Shown in pieces: positions 2,932 to 61,213 of a stretch of 64,000 nt of DNA (its first letter is position 1; the number at the start of each line of letters is the position of its first letter). The position numbers and the translations under genes are program-made. Under the pieces are notes generated by a model. The model had not been told where the DNA came from. It did not search any database and saw only the letters and a program-made list of their open reading frames with translations. Source of the stretch: Lingula anatina (taxonomy: Eukaryota > Animalia > Brachiopoda); contig CM120641.1 in assembly GCA_051362555.1 (NCBI GenBank), positions 27,038,401-27,102,400 of the forward strand, written 5' to 3'.

Positions 2932-5037
2932 TTAACTATGGTCACCCATTGAAGTTCTGTACATTTCATAAGCATGTACCTCTTTATGTTCCTTATCACA
3001 GTACACTCCAATATAGTCCAATTCTAGGCTGAAAGGTCCAGCAGTACCATCTGCTATTATTATAGAACACACTGCGACTCTTGAGAGGTCTAATGGACGT
3101 TGAATATCATTTATAATCCCAGAATTTGTGAAGAAGAACTTAGAAAAGGGGATCTGAAATTCAAAATAAAAAAGTAAAAAATGACTATTTTCTGAAAATA
3201 CGTGTTTTATTATTTATTCCAGCTAATAAGAAAAAAAAGTGCTATAATTAAGTTTGATAAAACAGCAGGAGGTTAGTAATAACGGTTTAGATTACAGTCA
3301 ATAGAAATTTAGATTTATAAGCACATATTTCCTCTAATCCTGAAGTAAATAAGAGACCATTCCCACAGATATTTAGATCGATATATCCCCCTGTCGCGTC
3401 TCACTAGATTTGTGTCAGCTTAACTTTAGTGTGTGCCAGGCTCCCGGAAGCTGACAGCAATTTAGCATGAATCCCCAGGGAGTTAGGTCTATCCAGATGG
3501 ATCGGTCTAAATCTGTGGGAACTGAGTCTAAGACCCCATTCCCAGAGATTAGATCGATCCAAACTAGATTGACCTAACTCCCTGGGGGGTTCATGCTAAA
3601 CAGCTGTCAGCCAAGCGGGCACGAAAGTTAATTACCCCCTTACAGCTTGTAGTTGGCGGGACAGACATTTAAGTCGGATTATCTGACAGTAATCTAGTGA
3701 GACTTCCCAGGGGGGATAGATCGATCTAAAATCTATGGGAATACGCCCTAAAACTATAGTTATTTATTTTCACCTTGATAGTCTGCCAATAAGGACCACC
3801 CCTTGTGTACAAGAAGAAGTTGTGCATGTCATAAAAGTTGAGGTTAAACTGTTCATCACGCCCAAGCCCAATTCCATACACTCTCCCATCGCCACGGCAA
3901 CGGATAACAAGATGTGTGTAGTCTGACCAATCAAAAGGGGCTCGTCGTCCAAAAGATTCCTAAATAGACATATACCATGGATTAAAACAGACTGCATATC
4001 AATTGCTCAATTATTCATATATTTACAAGACCCAACAGTTAAAAAAGGCTATTTCACAGATAGTCTCTTTGTCTCACATCTCAAAAATTCAAAATTATCT
4101 GGAAAAACAAATGTATCAGGCCAAAGAAAATTTAAACTCCAAGGCATGAAAGAGGCCATTCAGAATGAGATGAGCCAAGTGCTAGCTAGGCCACGACCTA
4201 AATATGGCGGACATACATGAAAGGAAGACCGCTTAATCGTGTAATGGTCTCTCCGCCTCTCATACACCTCCCCACGTGTCATTAATTCCTGCATGGGCAC
4301 AGTAATTAAATCTCAGGTCAACTCAATCGGTCAAGGGACAATGCGTGGGGAGCCGTGTGAGAGGCACAGAGACTATTACAGGATTAAACAGTCTTCCTTT
4401 CATGTAGGTCCGCCATATTTAGGTCGTGCACTTTAGGTTTAGCACTCGGCTCTTCTCATTCTGAATGGCCTCAAATTGATTTCAACAAGAATGTCTGAGA
4501 GGGTGGTTAATAAAAAAAAAATAGTCTAACCCATCTCCTCTTGTTAATTAATGAACAATATCCTGCTCTCTCTTGCAATTCTCTATTCTGAATAGTTGTT
4601 GCAAGGGTTCCTCGGAAATGTCCATGATTGTTTTTTGTTAAGACAAGTTCTGCCTCAGAAAATCCAAGATTTTCTTGCTTATCTGTGCTCAGAATCCAGT
4701 CATTAAGACTATCTTCCCCCTTAAACTTCCATACAATACGAAGATCACCATGGCGGACTTGTTGGCTGATTTCTTGGCTAATAGGCGAAAGGAGAGACAA
4801 GGGATTACTGCGTAATTTTTTTCCCCACATCTTAAGGTGTTGTGGAAAGTTTTCTAGAACTTCATCTGTAGTTGGTATGCCTACATAATAAGACGGTGGC
4901 TTTTTTTTATGATGGAGGACTGACTGCCTTTTGTATCTTTTGGAAATCACACATGTCTGAAGTCTCTGAATACCATTGGTCTTTAGTATACTGTTCCCAG
5001 AGTGTATAACAGCTGTCAGTGGACGTGCCATTAGCAT
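2932..5037 (-). CDS. NDUFAF1: Complex I intermediate-associated protein 30 (CIA30), mitochondrial complex I assembly factor, about 304 aa
   Basis: Coding exons 5037-4531, 3959-3774 and 3153-2932. Motifs: W.F...L..W...D...GFS, AGYCS, DWSDYTHLVIRCRGDGR, LYTRGGPYWQ..KIPFSKFF, GPFSLELDYIG. The N-terminus is basic like a mitochondrial presequence. Acceptor at 5050-5051; the start could be ATG 5037 or 5031. A non-coding exon 1 probably lies near 6830-6990. Confidence 0.9.
3353..3528. mobile_element. Foldback MITE, family A copy 1 (PIF/Harbinger-like)
   Basis: Imperfect TIRs gagaccattcccacaga...tctgtgggaactgagtc, flanked by TAA at 3350-52 and 3529-31. Related copies at 3532, 23411 and 61003. Confidence 0.75.
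3532..3748. mobile_element. Foldback MITE, family A copy 2, abutting copy 1 in opposite orientation
   Basis: gaccccattcccagagattagatcgatc...gatcgatctaaaatctatgggaatacgccc, flanked by TAA at 3529-31 and 3749-51. Confidence 0.75.
4152..4472. mobile_element. Long-TIR MITE, family B, in an NDUFAF1 intron
   Basis: Near-complete palindrome: gaggccattcagaatgaga...tctcattctgaatggcctc, with inner arms cacgacctaaatatggcggac / gtccgccatatttaggtcgtg. Shares its core with 57338-57636. Confidence 0.85.
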
Positions 5038-10902: not shown

Positions 10903-19586
<8,684 letters not shown>

Positions 19587-20224
19587 CTAGATATAATAAT
19601 GATTGTATTGCAACTGGTTGAGGAGATTTTTATATTCACAAAGCTTTGTGTTGATTTAAAGAATACTGCACTATTTTGTCTAAACGTACTGAGATATAGC
19701 ATTTCTACCTCACCTGCCTTCTGACTATGTTTGCTGGGGATGGTGTACTAAAATGAATAAGATTAGCACTGTCTCAATGTGCCAGATTCATTTAACTAGA
19801 ACTTGGGGTAGAACTTGGAAGAACGCGACTCACTTATGTTATTTAGACGCACATACAGTATGTCTCTGCTTAACGACCAAAAACAAAACTCAATGTTAAT
19901 ATATAAAAATGAAGGCGATTCAATAATTCTACTCGACTTCTCACTGCCTAAGATTGTCAGCTTTTGACGGTCCATTTGAGCCTGGACTGAAACTTCCCAG
20001 CCGGCTTCAGCTTCAACGCCAATCTGTCGTGAAGTGTAAAGTGCCGACGATATTGATAGAAGCCGGTAAACGAAAAGCTGCGTAATTGTAGGTTTTTAAA
20101 CAATCAAGTCTCTTTAAAATATAAACTTACCTTTATGGTTTGAAAGTGTGTTGTCTTTATACCAATTACCACACTTAAATAATATGAAAATACTACACGT
20201 AACACATTGACAGATGAAGCCACT

Positions 20225-20306
20225 AAGCGGAAGATGCCACGTCGAGTCCCACAATGCAATGGAATGTGACGTCAGCGGAAGGGAATTCCCTCTCCATTGA
20301 CCTTTG
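20225..20306. promoter_or_regulatory. Candidate bidirectional promoter SEC23/selenoprotein L
   Basis: GCGGAAG (ETS) twice; TGCCACGT 20235-42 (CREB3/CrebA/XBP1-type); TCCCACAATGCA 20247-58 (ZNF143/Staf-like); TGACGTCA 20267-74 (CRE); GGGAATTCCC 20281-90 (kB palindrome). Minus-strand donors at 20130 and 19833 and a plus-strand donor at 20598 flank the cluster. Confidence 0.65.
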
Positions 20307-20930
20307 TCATGTTTCAAAACATTACAACGTGTTAATTACAGCGAGAATCTAAACACGTTGATATGTAGGGTGAGTAAAATAAGTTAAATAAAAGTAACAA
20401 TAATCACAATAATAAGTAAACAGATATCAAACTGATAATCTGCATACAAAATGAAATAATAGATGATTTGTGAATGTGAAATGACAAATTGTGCTGGATA
20501 TGGCAGTGAGCAATTCAAATTGGAGGACCTTGGAGGGGAGGAGCAGGTCACAGATTGATATTAATTTCGTGATTATAAGAATGCGATTTCTGTCGAAGTA
20601 AGCCCTAAAATATTAATATCATAATTACCCCTTCCTCTTTTACAAGCATTTTACAAATGCCAATTTTTGTAAACAAACTAGTAGAAGTCAGTTTCTTAAA
20701 ATTTATTTGAAAATCATTTTTTAAAAACATACTCTGTGCATCTATACATCTCTTATCTTGTACTAAAGTAAATGTGAAAATCATTTTAAAAAATCGCTTG
20801 CTACACTGTAACAGTATATAATTAATCAGACTACTAGTACTTACATGTATATTGCCCCAGTACATATTCAGATTCCAGTGAAAAAAATTGAATTGGTAAT
20901 TATTGTGATTTAGAAAGAGTACTGTATGAT

Positions 20931-23900
20931 ATGGACTGCACAAAGGAATTGCTACATAATGGGCTTGAGGAAGCAATTCATAAGGCTGAGGCGATTTTAA
21001 AGAAGGCCAAAGATTATGCACAAGGTAATAGTTTTTCTAATGTTTTGCCTTGTGTTTAAGATTTCTAAGAGATAGAGGATAATTGATAAATAATGACTTA
21101 ATGTACCAATAAGGTGCATTTCAAAAAGTTTTGTAATTCTGGAGGGGCATATTTAGCCACTTAATTATCTTGTTAAATGTGAAAAGCTGGGTGCATCACT
21201 GCATAAGATATGAATTACAGACCTGTACACTCATATTTCAGATCTCAGTGAATTTTTTTCAAAAAGATAGAATCTTAAAAGCCTAGATATTAATTTGTTG
21301 AAATTTTGAGAAGACAGATTTTCATATACTTTTGATATATTTAGGTTAAAAGAACCTGAATTTTTCACAATTGATTTAATTTCAGAGTCTATGAAGGACT
21401 TTGCGACAGACAACCACACATGTCTTGGTGGTTTAATTGGGGTGTATTACAATCTTTTCACAAGGTAAAAATTTACTTTATAATAGGAAAATCTAAATAC
21501 AGTTTACATTAACATGCACTGAACTATCATTTTAAAATACAAAGAAAAAAAATTAAATATAAGTTGGTTATGAATCATATAAAATTATCCATAGATCTAT
21601 ACCTTTCACAACAATCATTACATTGCTGAAGGGTGAAATAAATATTATTTATTTTTCAGTTTGGGTGTTAAATCAAGACAAGAACTTGAAAAAGTGTGTG
21701 AGAGAAATTTCAGGCATTTGGAAATACAGGAAAGTTGGCATGAATTAGAAACTGTGGAGGTGAGCACTGCACTTGATGAATGTAAAGATAAATTTTGACA
21801 AAAATCATAAATGAATAAGTTTTTAGTTTTCTCTGAAAGGGTATAGTGAAATAGTTTTTAATAATGCATACTGTCACCAAGTAGAAAATGTCTGTTATGT
21901 GTCTGTTTAAACAGTAATTTTATAAAGGTAAATTGTGAAAGTTACCTTTACAACAAAATTTTCCTTGCTTTTTATTCAGAGGGAATGGAATCGGTTTCTT
22001 GATGATGTAGATAAAGAGCAATACTTTACAGAGTATACCACAGTACCTCTGCAGATTGGCTCTCCAGCTCCTGTTGACCTCCCTTTAATAAATTCTCAAA
22101 ATAATCAAACAAATTATCTCAAAGAATGGATGAACAGCAGCTACCTAATCCTTATCTTGTTGCGCCATTTTGCTTGACTGCCATGACGAGACCACATAAA
22201 AGATGTGGAGCAGAGAGAGGTAGATTGGTTTTCAGCTGATTGACTGAATTAAATTTTTGTACCTGTACATTGTTAGAAATGTTTGTCTTTTTCAATCACC
22301 AGGTTTTATTTATGTACGAGTTGATGAAATGCTAAATTTTGAATAAGAATTCAAAGCATATCATTTTAAGAATACTAGTTCATTTATCACAATGCCCACC
22401 ATGATTGATAGTTTATTTGTTTTATTAGTTCTTTTAGACTTACTTCATAAGTTATTTCTGAACTTGGTGATGTTGTGATTTCAGTCAGAACTGACAGCAG
22501 GTGGCAACAAGATAATTGTGGTCTCCTTTGGAGGGATCGAAGGTGCCCGCCAGTGGTTAGAGGTCACACAATGTCATTATGAACTCTTACTAGATCCAGA
22601 TAGAAAGGTATTTATATTCTTGCATCCTAATTCATTGAGTTTAATGGTTTATATAAACTTGTATTTAGGTTTATTGCAAATGTGCCATGTGTTTAAAACT
22701 CTGTAACATAAAAAACTTGAATAATTACCAGGTTACTTTGATGTTGAATTTGATAAATAAATCTCATGTGTCCAATTCACTTGGAAAATGTATATTTCAG
22801 TTGTATCATGCTCTTGGCCTAGGTAGATCCATGTCAAAGGTCAGTTAATATGTATTCATAAACTGAAATATTATTGAAGTAAAAATAAGTAAATTTTGTA
22901 AAAGCACAGCAGACTTTCTTTTTTGTTTTCACATAACCATAAACTGCCTTTTGTCTTTAGTAGAGCTCCCTATGACCTTTGTAATCATATAGTACACTTA
23001 GTGTGTCTGTAATATTTTGAAGGAATTCTTTTATCATTAAATTAAATGTGCAAATATAATTTAAAATCAAAAAGAAAAAAAAAAACATTGTCAATGTTTA
23101 TAATATGAATATGGCTATCATTATTCAGCAGATATGCTGAATGTTTTCTTTTGTTGAATTTCATGTAGGTGTGGAAAACTGACACGCTGAATTATTATGC
23201 GGAACAGAAAGCATCTGGACGAGCTCTTCCCAAGCCAGTGGAGGATGATCCATTGCAAGTAATGAGGAAATAAATGGAAATAAATTGGAAGATAAAAATA
23301 ATGCTAAAGAAAAGAAAGTAATATGTGATTACAATGTACTTTGTTGTATATGGCATATACAGTGTATTAGAATAATAAAAACTTTTTGCTATATCACAAC
23401 ATGAGGCAAAGGGACCATTCCCACAGATATTTGAATTGATCTATCTCCCTGGGGAGTCTCACTAAATTGCTATCAATTCAACCGGCTTAAATGTCTGTCA
23501 CAACTTGTAAAGCTTTTTAGGGGGTAATTATCTTTACCCCCTAGCTGATTTGTTAGGCGTGACAGACATTTAAGCAGGTTAGTTGATAGCAGTTTAGTGA
23601 GACTCCCAAGGGAGTTAGACCGATCCAGGTATGGGAACCCAGTCAAAGTGACACACTCATTATAGTACAGGTAGTAATGACTAATTTGTTTGGTTCCAGA
23701 TGGGTGGTGATTTTGTCATAGATCCAACTGGCCACTTGGTTTACATCCACTGCAGCAAAGACCCCACTGACAGACCCTCAGTTGAACATCTCATTCAGCT
23801 TATTAAAGTAGGTGTCCTAGAGCTACAGTACTAATACATGTTTGCAGCCCCACTTTTCTCATCTTACACATTCAATTGACTTAGTTAAGTATATATGACA

Positions 23901-24384
23901 GATGATTCTCTTATATGTACGTCTACTGGAGGACAATACATCTTTTCTGATTCTTCAGTTTAAAGGAAGTGAGACGTGTGAGTGATGAGAGTGTACTAGC
24001 TACAGTAGTACAGGTATTAGGTCTGTAGGTGTTTGTTTGTGGGTGCATGACAATAGTCCAAAGGTTAAAATGTCAGAAGGTTCATCAATGCAAATGTTTA
24101 CTTTAGAACCTCCAACCAACAAACCCAATTATTGAAAAAAAAATTGATGAAAACATTACATTTTTTTTAATGAACCATTGTACTAATGTACCTTCAGTCT
24201 AGATGCAAGATGCACCCTTGTTCTCAGATGAAGTCTGTTAGTTAACATATTTCTCCATAATATACTTCATTACTTATTATCTCATTAAGTTTTGTTTATT
24301 CATTTGATATATATGGAAGATGCTAAAATAAAGATATCTTTATATTATCAGGACCATGCTGCCACAGGACCAGAAAGCAAGTAA
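20931..24384 (+). CDS. SELENOL: Selenoprotein L (thioredoxin-like AhpC/TSA fold, UxxU motif, two selenocysteines), about 301 aa
   Basis: Exons 20931-21024, 21386-21464, 21660-21759, 21980-22219, 22485-22607, 22801-22839, 23169-23258, 23700-23807, 24352-24384. In-frame TGA at 22175-77 and 22184-86 lie within LLRHFA-U-LP-U-RDHI. Downstream: VVSFG..EGA..WL..T.C.Y..LLDPDRKLY.ALGL and DPLQMGGDFVID..G.L...H...DP.DRPSV. A SECIS is present in the 3' UTR. Confidence 0.93.
23411..23644. mobile_element. Foldback MITE, family A copy 3, in a SELENOL intron
   Basis: gggaccattccca...tgggaacccagtc, with internal inverted arms ggagtctcactaaa/tttagtgagactcc and cttaaatgtctgtcac/gtgacagacatttaag. Confidence 0.8.
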
Positions 24385-24400
24385 AATGTGTTGTTCCTTT

Positions 24401-24470
24401 TAAATGCCAAGATGACAGTTTTAGTGTAAATCAGTTCCTACTGACCACAAAAGCTTGAAGGATGCATTAA
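24401..24470 (+). promoter_or_regulatory. Eukaryotic SECIS element, type II (cis-acting RNA)
   Basis: Helix I aatgc/gcatt. Core AUGAC 24412-16 pairs with UGAA 24456-59. Helix II agtttt-a-gtg / cac-a-aaagct. Unpaired AAA at 24428-30. Apical minihelix tcagt-(tcct)-actga. Confidence 0.9.
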
Positions 24471-25419
24471 GAGGAGCTGCATTCTATTATTTCTGAATTT
24501 ATTCTTCCACCATGGATGGATTTTATCAATTGCCAATTGTACTTGATTATATCAAAATGTTTTTTTTACTGACAGAAGAATATAAAGGGATTATAAGTAA
24601 ATATACAATGGAAATGTAATCTGATAATTTATTCAAGATTATTGTTTTTAGCCTAGATAAATCAAAAATCATCTACTGAACTACAGGGTGTTCATACCAT
24701 GAGTTGAGCAACCCTCAATTGTGTAAAATGTGATATATGACCAGCATCAATGAAAAATGATTTAAAAAAGACTATTCTTTATTGGTGAGGTTATTGTTTT
24801 ACAATTAATTGGTTATTTTAGCATGTAAAAGTTTTCAGGATTATGCCTGATTTTAGGATTTTCAGTTTTTATTTTGGTCATCTTTTATCTTTATAGTCTA
24901 AGTGTGATGAGAAATTGCAAGTAATGTTTTCAGGATTTTTAGTTCTTACAACTGTCACCCTTGTGTTAGCATACAGCAAAACAATATTATGTATTATTGT
25001 TCCTGCCGTATATTAAGACTTTGTTCAATAACCATCTAAAACATTGAATCAATTGCACATGTATGGTTGAATACTAAAGATACTCAGTGAACTATCTCTA
25101 AAATTATGTTTGTCATCTTTGCTTATTGCCAGTACAATTGATGTGAATATTACATATTTTAATAAAAAAAAAACATCATTTAAAATGTATTTTAACTATA
25201 ACAGCTAGCAAAATATAGCCTTCCCAAAAGTCAATAAAAATAAGATGAATATATGTGATTTTGTAACCCAAAAATAATAAAATAAATAAATAAAATAAAA
25301 TAAAGTGTTATAATTAACTTCAAAGGTTCCATAATAGTAAATCTGACCAACTGCACCCGTGAAATTATTGCATTCTCAAACCTTACTTTCTGAGAGGTGC
25401 ATTTAGCCTATCTTGTTTA

Positions 25420-25434
25420 CAGCGCCACCTATGC
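25420..25434 (-). promoter_or_regulatory. CTCF-like motif between SELENOL and the ninein-like gene
   Basis: cagcgccacctatgc; the reverse complement gcatAGGTGGCGCTG matches the CTCF core. Confidence 0.4.
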
Positions 25435-25820
25435 TTTGCATTTCTTGCATCTAGGGAAGCTTTTTAGCAGGTGGGAGATTTGTGTGAATATTTGAATTTC
25501 TTTTGTAAACATATGTCTTCCATCACTCTCTGGAGAAGAACAAGAATCAAACCTCCCAATATTGACAATTTAGTTTGCATTCTTTCAAAGAAGAAGAGAA
25601 ATGGTAATGGATATGAATGGCAACTTTTCGGATGATTGATTGAAATGATAGCCAATAATCCTGGCGGCTGCCCATTCATATTTTTGTCGCAGCCAAAAAT
25701 GATATAGAAAGTTCAGTTCGGCATATTTGAGGTAAAATGTTACCTTTTGTAATGGAATAAACCACATTAAGAGAAATTATGTAACTGGGAACATAAACTG
25801 TGATAAATGATCCGTCCAAA

Positions 25821-26082
25821 ATGGCTGAAGACAATGAGTATGTTATGCAGCTGCGGGAGGTATTTGACAGTTGCGACCATTCCAATACTGGCTATCTAAA
25901 CAAAGCTGAGCTAAAGGAGCTGTGCATTAAGTTACAGCTGGAGGACCAGAGTGATGCAGTGATCAGACAGTTGTTAGGCAGTGATGAGGAAGGCAGGGTG
26001 AGTTTTTATTAGTATTATTTCTTTTACATGTACATGTACACTCTGGTCTAGCAGGTTTTCTACTATAACGCCCCTGTTTTTT

Positions 26083-29100: not shown

Positions 29101-32100
29101 GCAGTTCTATTGAACTTTATAGCAACAGGGTGTAAGGTACTGGAAATATGAGAGATATTTGAATGGTTGTTTGATAGCTTTAAACGCACCATAAGAGACT
29201 GTGAAATGTTGTGTAACAAACAGAAAAATGATTTGGTTCAAATTCCGCATGTCAGTTTTTCATTTTTCTTTCCTTTTTTTTGGCATGCTTTTCACAATGT
29301 TGATTTGGGGTCTGACACATGCTTTTTTTAAATTCACAGTTGTACAATGGAAGCATGCAAATGGGGTCTCAAATTGTCAAGATTGTCCATTGAGCAATCT
29401 TCATGTGAGATGACATAATTGTTCACTATCAAAAGAAGCCAGTAAGTTTATCTAAAAACATAGCAACAGTATAGGGTGTGCTTCTTTGTTTATGAGACAT
29501 TTCATTAACTTCAGCCAGATCTGGTTTAAGAGCAAGATTAAACTCACGTCTGGCATAAGATGGAACTGACTCTGGTAAGGCAGTATTTATGGTGTACAAG
29601 ATAGTAAATCATTAGTGATACCTAAGGAATGCATTTTTTTTTCTGTGGGAATCTCCGGAATATTTTTTATTAAGCATGCTTCTTTTATAGTAAGTGGATG
29701 AAAATTGATAGCCTCAAACCAGCAGGATAGTGGGAAGATATCCATTAGTTTATTGTGTGTATCTCTATGTGGGGCTATATGGATGGTATTACAAGTAAAA
29801 AACTATTGCAGTTTTTAAAATCATTTTTACCTGTCAGTTTTCCGTATACTAAAGGTGGCACAGTTTTTGAAACGGTTCCTGTTCATGTTTGTTAATTATT
29901 TACACTGTCACATTTTGAAATCAAATTAATACTTTTGATAAAATCCATGACGTTTTCCATTTTATAATCTAGCATAATGATTTAGAATACTTTCAAGACA
30001 AATTAGAATGACATTTACATTAACTGCTGTGAAATTCAAGATTTTTTTGTTAGAAACTATCTTGAGATGGTCCCTGAAGACCTTTACCTATCTCACTGAC
30101 TGCATACTTTATCTAGAACGTGAGGGTTTCTGCTGCTTTAGATAAACACAGTTCTTCTGCAGGCAGCTTTGGTTAAACAACATGTAGTGCATCCCAGGCA
30201 GCCTTCATCGCTAGGCAACAATATAAGATAAAGAACTGTTGTCCATAAAGTGACTGAAATGGTCAGGTATGATATTGAAACTGCGAGAACAGTGTTAAAT
30301 AAGTACTGATGTCTGTTTTGTTTATTTTCAGATTTAAGTTGGCATTCATGGTGATACAATAAGAATTTGTGTGGCTCATTTACTTGTAACAATATAAAGT
30401 GCTTAAAGCTCTGTTGTAGAAGGATATCAGACATGTATCTGAAAGACTCCTGTGTAACAGGATGTTGAAAGGTGTTATATTGTAATTTTGGAGAGATGAA
30501 TCCAAAAGAGGTTGTTAGCCATTGATATACGTGAAGCATTGTAAATAATGGGCGGATCCAGATATTTTTTTGACAGTCTTCCAAATTATCTTTTTTGAAC
30601 TGTCCTCCATTTTTGACCGTGTTCTGACAGAAAAATTAGATGTCCTTCAGTGTAATCTAAAAAAATTCTGACTTTCTTCCAGAAGACCCAGCAGACGGCT
30701 TCCATCTGCTCCTGAATGACTTAGATTATATATTTTTATTATTACATTTTGATGTCAGTGTACGGAAAGGTTTTACACAAAGCAAGGAAGAACTGTATAA
30801 AAATATATATAATTCCTTGCACATCAGATTCTGTAAACTTAACATTTTCTTTCATTACCTAGGGAGAGTTTTAACATGAGGCATGCACACTTCCTGTGAT
30901 GAAATGATTCATGAACTTATATTGTAATTTTCTAAATAGTTTGGACAACCAGATTGAATGATGCAATGAGTTTTGGTACCTGTCTCTTGAACTAGCACAC
31001 ACCATTATATTATTATCATATTTTTTATCTAAACCACATGCTGTTATCCAGGGGCTGTGTTTCACAGCAAAAAAAATTGACAGTACATAATTTCAGCCCA
31101 GCATGTGATATATACAGAAATCATCCTCTGAGTTTAGTGAGTCAGCTGTGAAATAATAAAAAAATGTCTGTGCATTTCCAGGCCAGATGGACCAGTCTAT
31201 GAGTGCCTTAGACCCTGTCAGTGAGGAGCAGCACCTGAAGGCAATATGGAGAGAGCTGGGCGTTGGTCAGATGGGGTCACTCAGCATACATGAACTCTCC
31301 ACTGTCTGTGAACATATTGGTATGGAGGAAATGACTGATGAGGTAAGGCAGGAAACAATGGCTGTGCTCTTGGCAACTGGTACCAAATGTCAGCTTCACC
31401 TTTTATTATAAAATTTAGATTTTGATGTTATGATAAAGTTAAATTGAAAAAATTCTCATATTGAGAACGCTCCTCAAGTTTTTTTAGATATTTTTAAAAA
31501 CAAATTTAAATGAATAAACTTGGCTATTAGTTTAAGATATTGAATATAAACACTTCATCCAACAGATAGTTTATTGCAGTTTTTGATTTTTTTTAACCAC
31601 ATTGTAATTCAAACTGATGCAGTATACTAAACTCATATTCATACATAGCCATGCAATACATGATGAAATCTTTTTTTTTTTTAATTTTTCAGGAACTCAG
31701 TCAGCTTTTTGAGAGACTAGATGTAGACCAAGATGGCCAAGTCAGCTTTGATGAATTCCTCAGGGGTCTGTTCCAGCATGGGGGCTCAAACCTTCCATCC
31801 ACTCCAATCCGTCCAATAAGCTCCCAGAAACAAAAGCTCAAACTACAGATGTCCATGTCTATGAATATTGATGAATCTTTACGTGGACAGACGCCGTCCA
31901 TAGTTGCAGTTGGGAGTGGTTCTGGGGTGTTCTCTTCATTAGATGTGGGAAATACAGGGTGATTGTCTTTTTTTTTGTGTGTTTATGTGAATAATACATG
32001 GAACCACATGATTTAGAATTCCAAGCGCTTTCACGATCATTACCAGCCATAAAGTCATCCATTTTTGCCTGAACTAAAATGCATGCATTTCTTATGAAAC

Positions 32101-61002: not shown

Positions 61003-61213
61003 GGGACCATTTCCAGACCCTATCACACTAACTGTGGGTCCATCTATCTCCAAGGGAATTATCGCTAAATTGCAATCAATGTAAGTGGCTTAGCTGTCCT
61101 ACTGAAACTGGCATGCCAGAATCCTAAGCCGCTTAAGCTGAAAGCAATTTAGTGAGAAACCCCTGCGAGTTGGATTGATCCTTGTAGATTGATCTAGGTA
61201 TGGGAACTCAGTC
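61003..61213. mobile_element. Foldback MITE, family A copy 4, nested in HINE D2
   Basis: tta|gggaccatttcca...tgggaactcagtc|taa. The empty site is preserved in the paralog at about 56845-56868. Confidence 0.82.

Follow-up and report, generated by a model that had tools for sequence, protein, structure and literature searches.

Selenoprotein L (SelL) is described in PMC13134290 as a protein with a UxxU motif, in which two selenocysteine (Sec) residues lie two residues apart, and with a single SECIS element in the 3´ untranslated region (UTR) of its mRNA. The service of both Sec residues of SelL by one SECIS is thus already in print (also in PMC3316567, citing Shchedrina 2007). According to PMC3473315 and PMC2397514, SelL occurs in fish and marine invertebrates, and the former source places it in five of six marine invertebrates.

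The type 2 SECIS combines an AUGA/GA core, a distance of 12 nt from the core to an AA, AAA in the bulge and an apical ministem (PMC2761289 and PMC13188914). According to PMC8704476, a eukaryotic SECIS works from afar and can serve any in-frame UGA; therefore, the decoding of two UGAs by one SECIS needs no special device. Selenoprotein P (SELENOP) represents a more elaborate arrangement, which combines numerous UGAs with two SECIS elements and with structures in the coding region (PMC5727441 and PMC5133445).

The gene analysed here lies in a 64,000-nt stretch of the Lingula anatina genome, hereafter the window, to which all positions refer. It is a SelL orthologue with the usual single type 2 SECIS, and its one-SECIS/two-Sec arrangement is of the kind already known: it shares with described SelL the UxxU in a peroxiredoxin-like domain and the single SECIS in the 3´ UTR, with no difference in kind. 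As in SELENOP, the 3´ UTR would (by prediction here) direct the recoding of more than one UGA of the same mRNA. In contrast to SELENOP, there are just two UGAs and a single SECIS here, and no hairpin within the coding region is supported.

Gene structure and identity of SelL

The gene lies on the forward strand and comprises 10 exons and nine introns, with all of the joints found in RNA reads from four runs bearing the same species label. Eight of the nine runs listed were used, four for the gene joints and four further ones for the 3´ UTR. Eight of the nine joints are listed as GT..AG, and the ninth would fit 23258/23700 provided that the reads carry a G at 23258.

Exon 1 (20300..20369, start approximate) is non-coding, and its joint, 20369/20914, is present in 19 reads of run X1. 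It is followed by exon 2 (20914..21024), which contains the likely start codon (ATG at 20931), exon 3 (21386..21464), exon 4 (21660..21759) and exon 5 (21980..22219), which encodes the UxxU motif in the context RHFA-U-LP-U-RDH. Downstream are exon 6 (22485..22607), exon 7 (22801..22839), a 39-nt exon found from the RNA joints only, exon 8 (23169..23258), whose downstream joint is the one that depends on the G at 23258, and exon 9 (23700..23807). Exon 10 (24352..25265, 3´ end approximate) comprises the last 10 codons, the TAA (24382..24384) with which the SelL frame stops, the SECIS and the 3´ UTR.

The spliced frame from ATG 20931 has 301 codons, with no internal stop besides the TGA codons 157 (22175..22177) and 160 (22184..22186), the first and second predicted Sec codons. 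Both belong to the spliced frame; the first is further marked by the point at which homologues end, and the second by the conservation of the TGA pair. The two in-frame UGAs separated by two codons, which had been proposed from the letters alone, are thus found in the spliced transcript. None of the 40 read variants listed for run X1 (depth about 31) falls at either TGA. Past the second TGA, 141 codons follow without interruption, spread over six spliced exons.

Three of six exon pieces, in order, match the NCBIfam model NF040769 ('SelL-related redox protein'): exon 5 (E 4e-11), exon 6 (E 0.0014) and exon 9 (E 3.9e-9). These matches score 42.9, 18.3 and 36.4 from single exons, and the family cut-off of 120 bits refers to the whole protein. 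Exon 6 also matches PF13911 (AhpC-TSA_2, E 5e-4).

Exon 5 was the query of a full HMMER search, which yielded 24 matches; 17 short ones were aligned and seven long multi-domain ones were left out. Twelve of the 17 aligned homologues stop exactly before the first U, and the other five read W-L-P-W, probably reflecting TGAs that the gene caller read as Trp. For one homologue, which comes from the gastropod Plakobranchus ocellatus, the source gives the name 'selenoprotein l' (10 proteins were looked up, two of them named). A word-index protein search of exon 5 against longer proteins gave no match, and the best full-length homologue found has at most 42% identity to the SelL protein described here. 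The TGA-xx-TGA motif was found at no fewer than 118 loci (at least 118) in metagenome contigs, 110 of 118 among the matches listed being homologues at E<=1e-4; the search pattern demands both TGAs, and these counts show wide conservation of the pair, not the frequency of its loss. On this sequence evidence, the gene is identified as an animal-type selenoprotein L (SelL/SELENOL), with a predicted peroxiredoxin-like thioredoxin-fold domain.

From the second UGA to the last exon junction downstream, the distance is 393 nt; therefore, the mRNA is likely to be subject to nonsense-mediated decay under selenium shortage.

Several neighbouring features were observed. A Sec23-like gene with Pfam Sec23_trunk and Sec23_helical matches occupies 12900-20130 on the reverse strand, head to head with SelL. 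The first exons of the two genes lie within about 200-300 nt of each other, which suggests a shared promoter. Just behind the 3´ end of SelL, from 25400-26000 onward on the forward strand, lies the next gene, whose first coding exon (25821-25997) encodes an EF-hand pair and which may be Ninein-like. Intron 8 contains a repeat of about 220 nt (23410-23630) with inverted internal symmetry (79%, over a length of 198 nt). Additional copies occur near 3350-3740 and 61040-61180, and reads from elsewhere pile up heavily on the repeat, which looks like a miniature inverted-repeat element.

The SECIS element of the 3´ UTR

The type 2 SECIS element extends over 24403..24468 on the forward strand. Helix I (24403-07 with 24464-68) closes the internal loop below the core, in which AUGA at 24412-15 faces GA at 24457-58 and tandem G-A pairs form at the base of helix II. 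The core pairs are U24413/A24459, G24414/A24458, A24415/G24457 and C24416/U24456, the first being U-A here and U-U in the Rfam consensus. Helix II (24417-26 with 24446-55) has 10 positions, made up of eight Watson-Crick pairs, one U-G wobble and one A-A mismatch (24423/24449). The unpaired AAA of the bulge (24428-30) comes 12 nt after the AUGA and is followed by a perfect 5-bp apical minihelix (24431-35 with 24440-44; pair probabilities 0.94-1.0). For 24403-24468, this canonical fold is the minimum free energy structure (-12.3 kcal/mol), and 18 of its 19 pairs have probabilities of 0.82-1.0.

The hairpin thus shares with the type 2 SECIS the AUGA/GA core, the 12-nt spacing, the AAA bulge, the ministem and the location in the 3´ UTR, and differs from it in a Rfam score of 24.1 bits (below 35), the U-A first core pair and a long predicted lower stem. 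The fold of the wider stretch 24385-24490 has a z score of -3.43, equalled by none of 200 shuffles, and owes this strength to the predicted continuation of helix I (24388-24407 with 24464-24482, spanning 24388..24482 on the forward strand), which starts 3 nt past the stop codon. Two read variants fall in this lower stem, with predicted effects on stability in opposite directions (24392 T>G, stabilising by 2.9 kcal/mol; 24481 A>G, destabilising by 2.0).

Sequence and folding bear out the hairpin of the sequence-only reading, with its AUGA quartet, 10-position helix II with one A-A mismatch, AAA and 5-bp minihelix. The gap of 27 nt that it gave between TAA 24382-84 and the AUGA core at 24412-15 can be read directly from the letters. 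Its location of the hairpin at 24401-24470 also holds, but the predicted helix I reaches 24388/24482, beyond that range.

The hairpin is part of the mRNA. Sense-strand reads cover it in all four 3´ UTR runs, continuously from the last joint and at a depth of 1.6-7. At this same depth (1.6-7), the reads list no variant within 24403-24468, and the flanks vary at 24386, 24392, 24481 and 24553. Sense reads drop to about zero by 25265, and AATAAA signals near the gene end are found at 25161, 25233, 25276, 25285 and 25294. Around 24690-25010 the depth is probably too high, owing to reads that seem to stem from a repeat at another place. Such reads obscure the central part of the UTR, and the 3´ end is therefore approximate.

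A covariance-model hit had been named as a check of the hairpin. The Rfam model RF00031 (SECIS_1) matched it end to end in a 1-kb scan (24.1 bits, E 0.05), but this score does not reach the gathering cut-off of 35 bits, which is a curation threshold and not a biological feature, and the match was lost in larger scans: a 5.3-kb scan gave no SECIS_1 match to the hairpin, and a scan of the whole window at the gathering score gave no match. Rfam alone therefore gives weak support.

In descriptor scans, the background per shuffled 64-kb strand was 0.3 matches for strict and 1.3 for loose descriptors (20 shuffles), and about 0.004-0.02 chance matches are expected per 900-nt UTR. The real window has matches at two places, 24412 and 31221. 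The latter, of GUGA type, is within chance expectation.

The sub-threshold Rfam score, the rate of about 1.3 loose SECIS-like matches per shuffled strand and the additional match at 31221 would all suit a hairpin that is a chance fold, in a gene that is either terminated by the first TGA or a pseudogene. This explanation is extremely improbable: it is opposed by the 141 open codons past the second TGA, over six spliced exons matching the SelL model, by the TGA pair kept in both animal-like and bacterial homologues, and by SECIS candidates at similar places in homologues.

Finally, a second SECIS was absent from 24340-25400 in descriptor and Rfam scans, and from 24385-25300 in a further descriptor scan. 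The earlier remark that no second element could be found by eye thus agrees with these scans of the 3´ UTR, which find the element at 24412 alone.

SECIS elements in SelL homologues

Twenty-two loci were judged to be eukaryote-like full coding sequences on the basis of a long N-terminus or a transcript-like contig and an uninterrupted frame, with taxonomy unchecked; two of them (L041 and L070) are near-identical. A SECIS candidate was found in eight of the 22, with its AUGA or GUGA 30, 31, 41, 45, 47, 53, 102 and 276 nt past the stop codon, that is, within 30-53 nt in six of the eight homologues with a detectable SECIS. The idea that a SECIS near the stop codon is unusual was accordingly rejected, within a comparison confined to SelL. 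A scan of the whole 3´ side with stricter energy lost the candidate of L063 and gained a weak CC-type candidate in L043. Rfam, run on 20 of the 22 loci, gave six SECIS_1 matches in five loci, five of the six being under the cut-off of 35. A stop-proximal SECIS and a sub-threshold Rfam score are thus usual in SelL, since the homologues show both.

No SECIS was found in 14 of the 22 eukaryote-like loci; in five of these 14, the 3´ sequence is shorter than 80 nt. Eight loci (L028, L030, L038, L041, L052, L058, L060 and L070) have 175-2091 nt of 3´ sequence and no SECIS in our own scans or with Rfam. Incomplete ends, non-canonical elements or insensitivity of the scans are possible explanations for the homologues without SECIS.

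Seven of the eight homologues with a candidate have a single SECIS, and L039 has two copies (583-644 and 832-892), a counter-example to one SECIS per SelL unless it is an assembly artefact. The L039 case, together with the approximate 3´ end of the L. anatina transcript and the insensitivity of Rfam here, favours the existence of a second, non-canonical or more distant SECIS, such that the hairpin at 24412 would not be the sole server of the two UGAs. Against it, this hairpin is all that the UTR yielded in two descriptor scans and a scan with Rfam, sense reads are at about zero by 25265 and one SECIS is the rule in seven of eight homologues; we regard a second element as very unlikely.

In Bacteria, a scan of GTDB genomes gave 32 loci, 24 of which are SelL homologues. 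A hairpin with an AGUU loop was observed in 23 of these 24 bacterial loci, mostly from Chloroflexota, 16 nt past the second UGA and 25 nt past the first. The bacterial SelL genes with AGUU hairpins fall within L119-L150 (e.g., L122:609-665), with L003, L004, L006, L007, L021 and L033 in addition; two Acidobacteriota are included. Both spacings fall within the range of 16-37 nt from the UGA in the bacterial SECIS model (PMC13188914). In an alignment of 24 rows, 95% of the cells pair and five of the seven pairs change on both sides; relatedness among the rows, and the use of these very rows to derive the structure, inflate the covariation controls. The AGUU hairpin is likely to be the single bacterial SECIS for both SelL UGAs. 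The service of a UXXU pair by one bacterial SECIS has previously been raised for hydrogenases (PMC13582414). The remaining locus, L126, from a record labelled Akkermansiaceae, is without the bacterial hairpin and has a motif context like that of the eukaryote-like L028 and L041; it is possibly a eukaryotic contig binned into a bacterial genome.

Recoding of the two UGAs

The anatomy of the hairpin, the spliced transcript in sense orientation, the pair of TGAs within a frame that is otherwise open over 301 codons and the presence of this pair in many homologues are observed. Going beyond these observations, the hairpin 24403-24468, the only SECIS found in the SelL 3´ UTR, very probably directs Sec insertion at both UGAs. 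The spacing known to matter is that from UGA to SECIS, not from stop to SECIS. The AUGA lies 462 nt from the first UGA and 453 nt from the second, above the minimum of 51-111 nt and inside the mammalian range of 207-5207 nt (PMC3316567).

As in known eukaryotic Sec decoding, SECISBP2 would bind the GA/GA kink-turn core and bring eEFSec, together with Sec-tRNA, to ribosomes some 450 nt upstream. Sec would be inserted at codon 157 and, three codons further on, a second time at codon 160. This would yield a peroxiredoxin-like protein of thioredoxin fold, in which the Sec pair may be able to form a diselenide. A diselenide between the two Sec residues has been reported for SelL.

It had been proposed that one SECIS recoding two such closely spaced UGAs makes this gene a compact model for processive Sec insertion. 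The single type 2 SECIS and the two-UGA transcript stand, but the word processive does not follow, since the sequence fits two independent insertions equally well. The SECIS could be real and also specialised for processive double insertion, with codon 160 read much more efficiently once Sec has been inserted at codon 157. This would be in line with SELENOP systems, where efficiency is higher at downstream UGAs after the first (PMC5727441), and with the description of some SECIS elements as directing processive incorporation (PMC8704476); the long predicted lower stem, beginning 3 nt past the stop, is also in its favour. It is compatible with the best explanation, that one SECIS serves both UGAs, but it adds one further hypothetical step and has no sign in the sequence, and we consider such specialisation possible, though on the unlikely side. 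An SRE-like helper hairpin 5 nt past the second UGA (22192-22208) was considered and rejected: it has a z score of -3.5 in a 40-nt window chosen post hoc, p 0.066 against synonymous shuffles, and no position common to the eukaryote-like homologues. No measurement of relative UGA efficiency for SelL was found in the literature covered; the founding paper and three papers on processivity were outside this scope and may contain it.

Extending this idea, SelL mRNAs would constitute a minimal natural system for processive Sec insertion, in which a SECIS close to the stop codon, carried by a long lower stem, would remain engaged, with the bacterial SelL as its matched pair. This proposal is speculative, and we hold it to be rather improbable.

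For L. anatina, the locus gains an RNA-supported 10-exon SelL model with its SECIS. For annotation, this is of use in a family whose members are cut at the first UGA by gene callers, as in 12 of the 17 aligned database homologues. If the proposal of a minimal processive system were true, the second Sec-tRNA would be delivered three codons downstream of the first, and more efficiently, without a second SECIS or the coding-region structures used by selenoprotein P, and bacterial SelL genes would manage the equivalent task by means of a single hairpin, located 16 nt from one UGA and 25 nt from the other.
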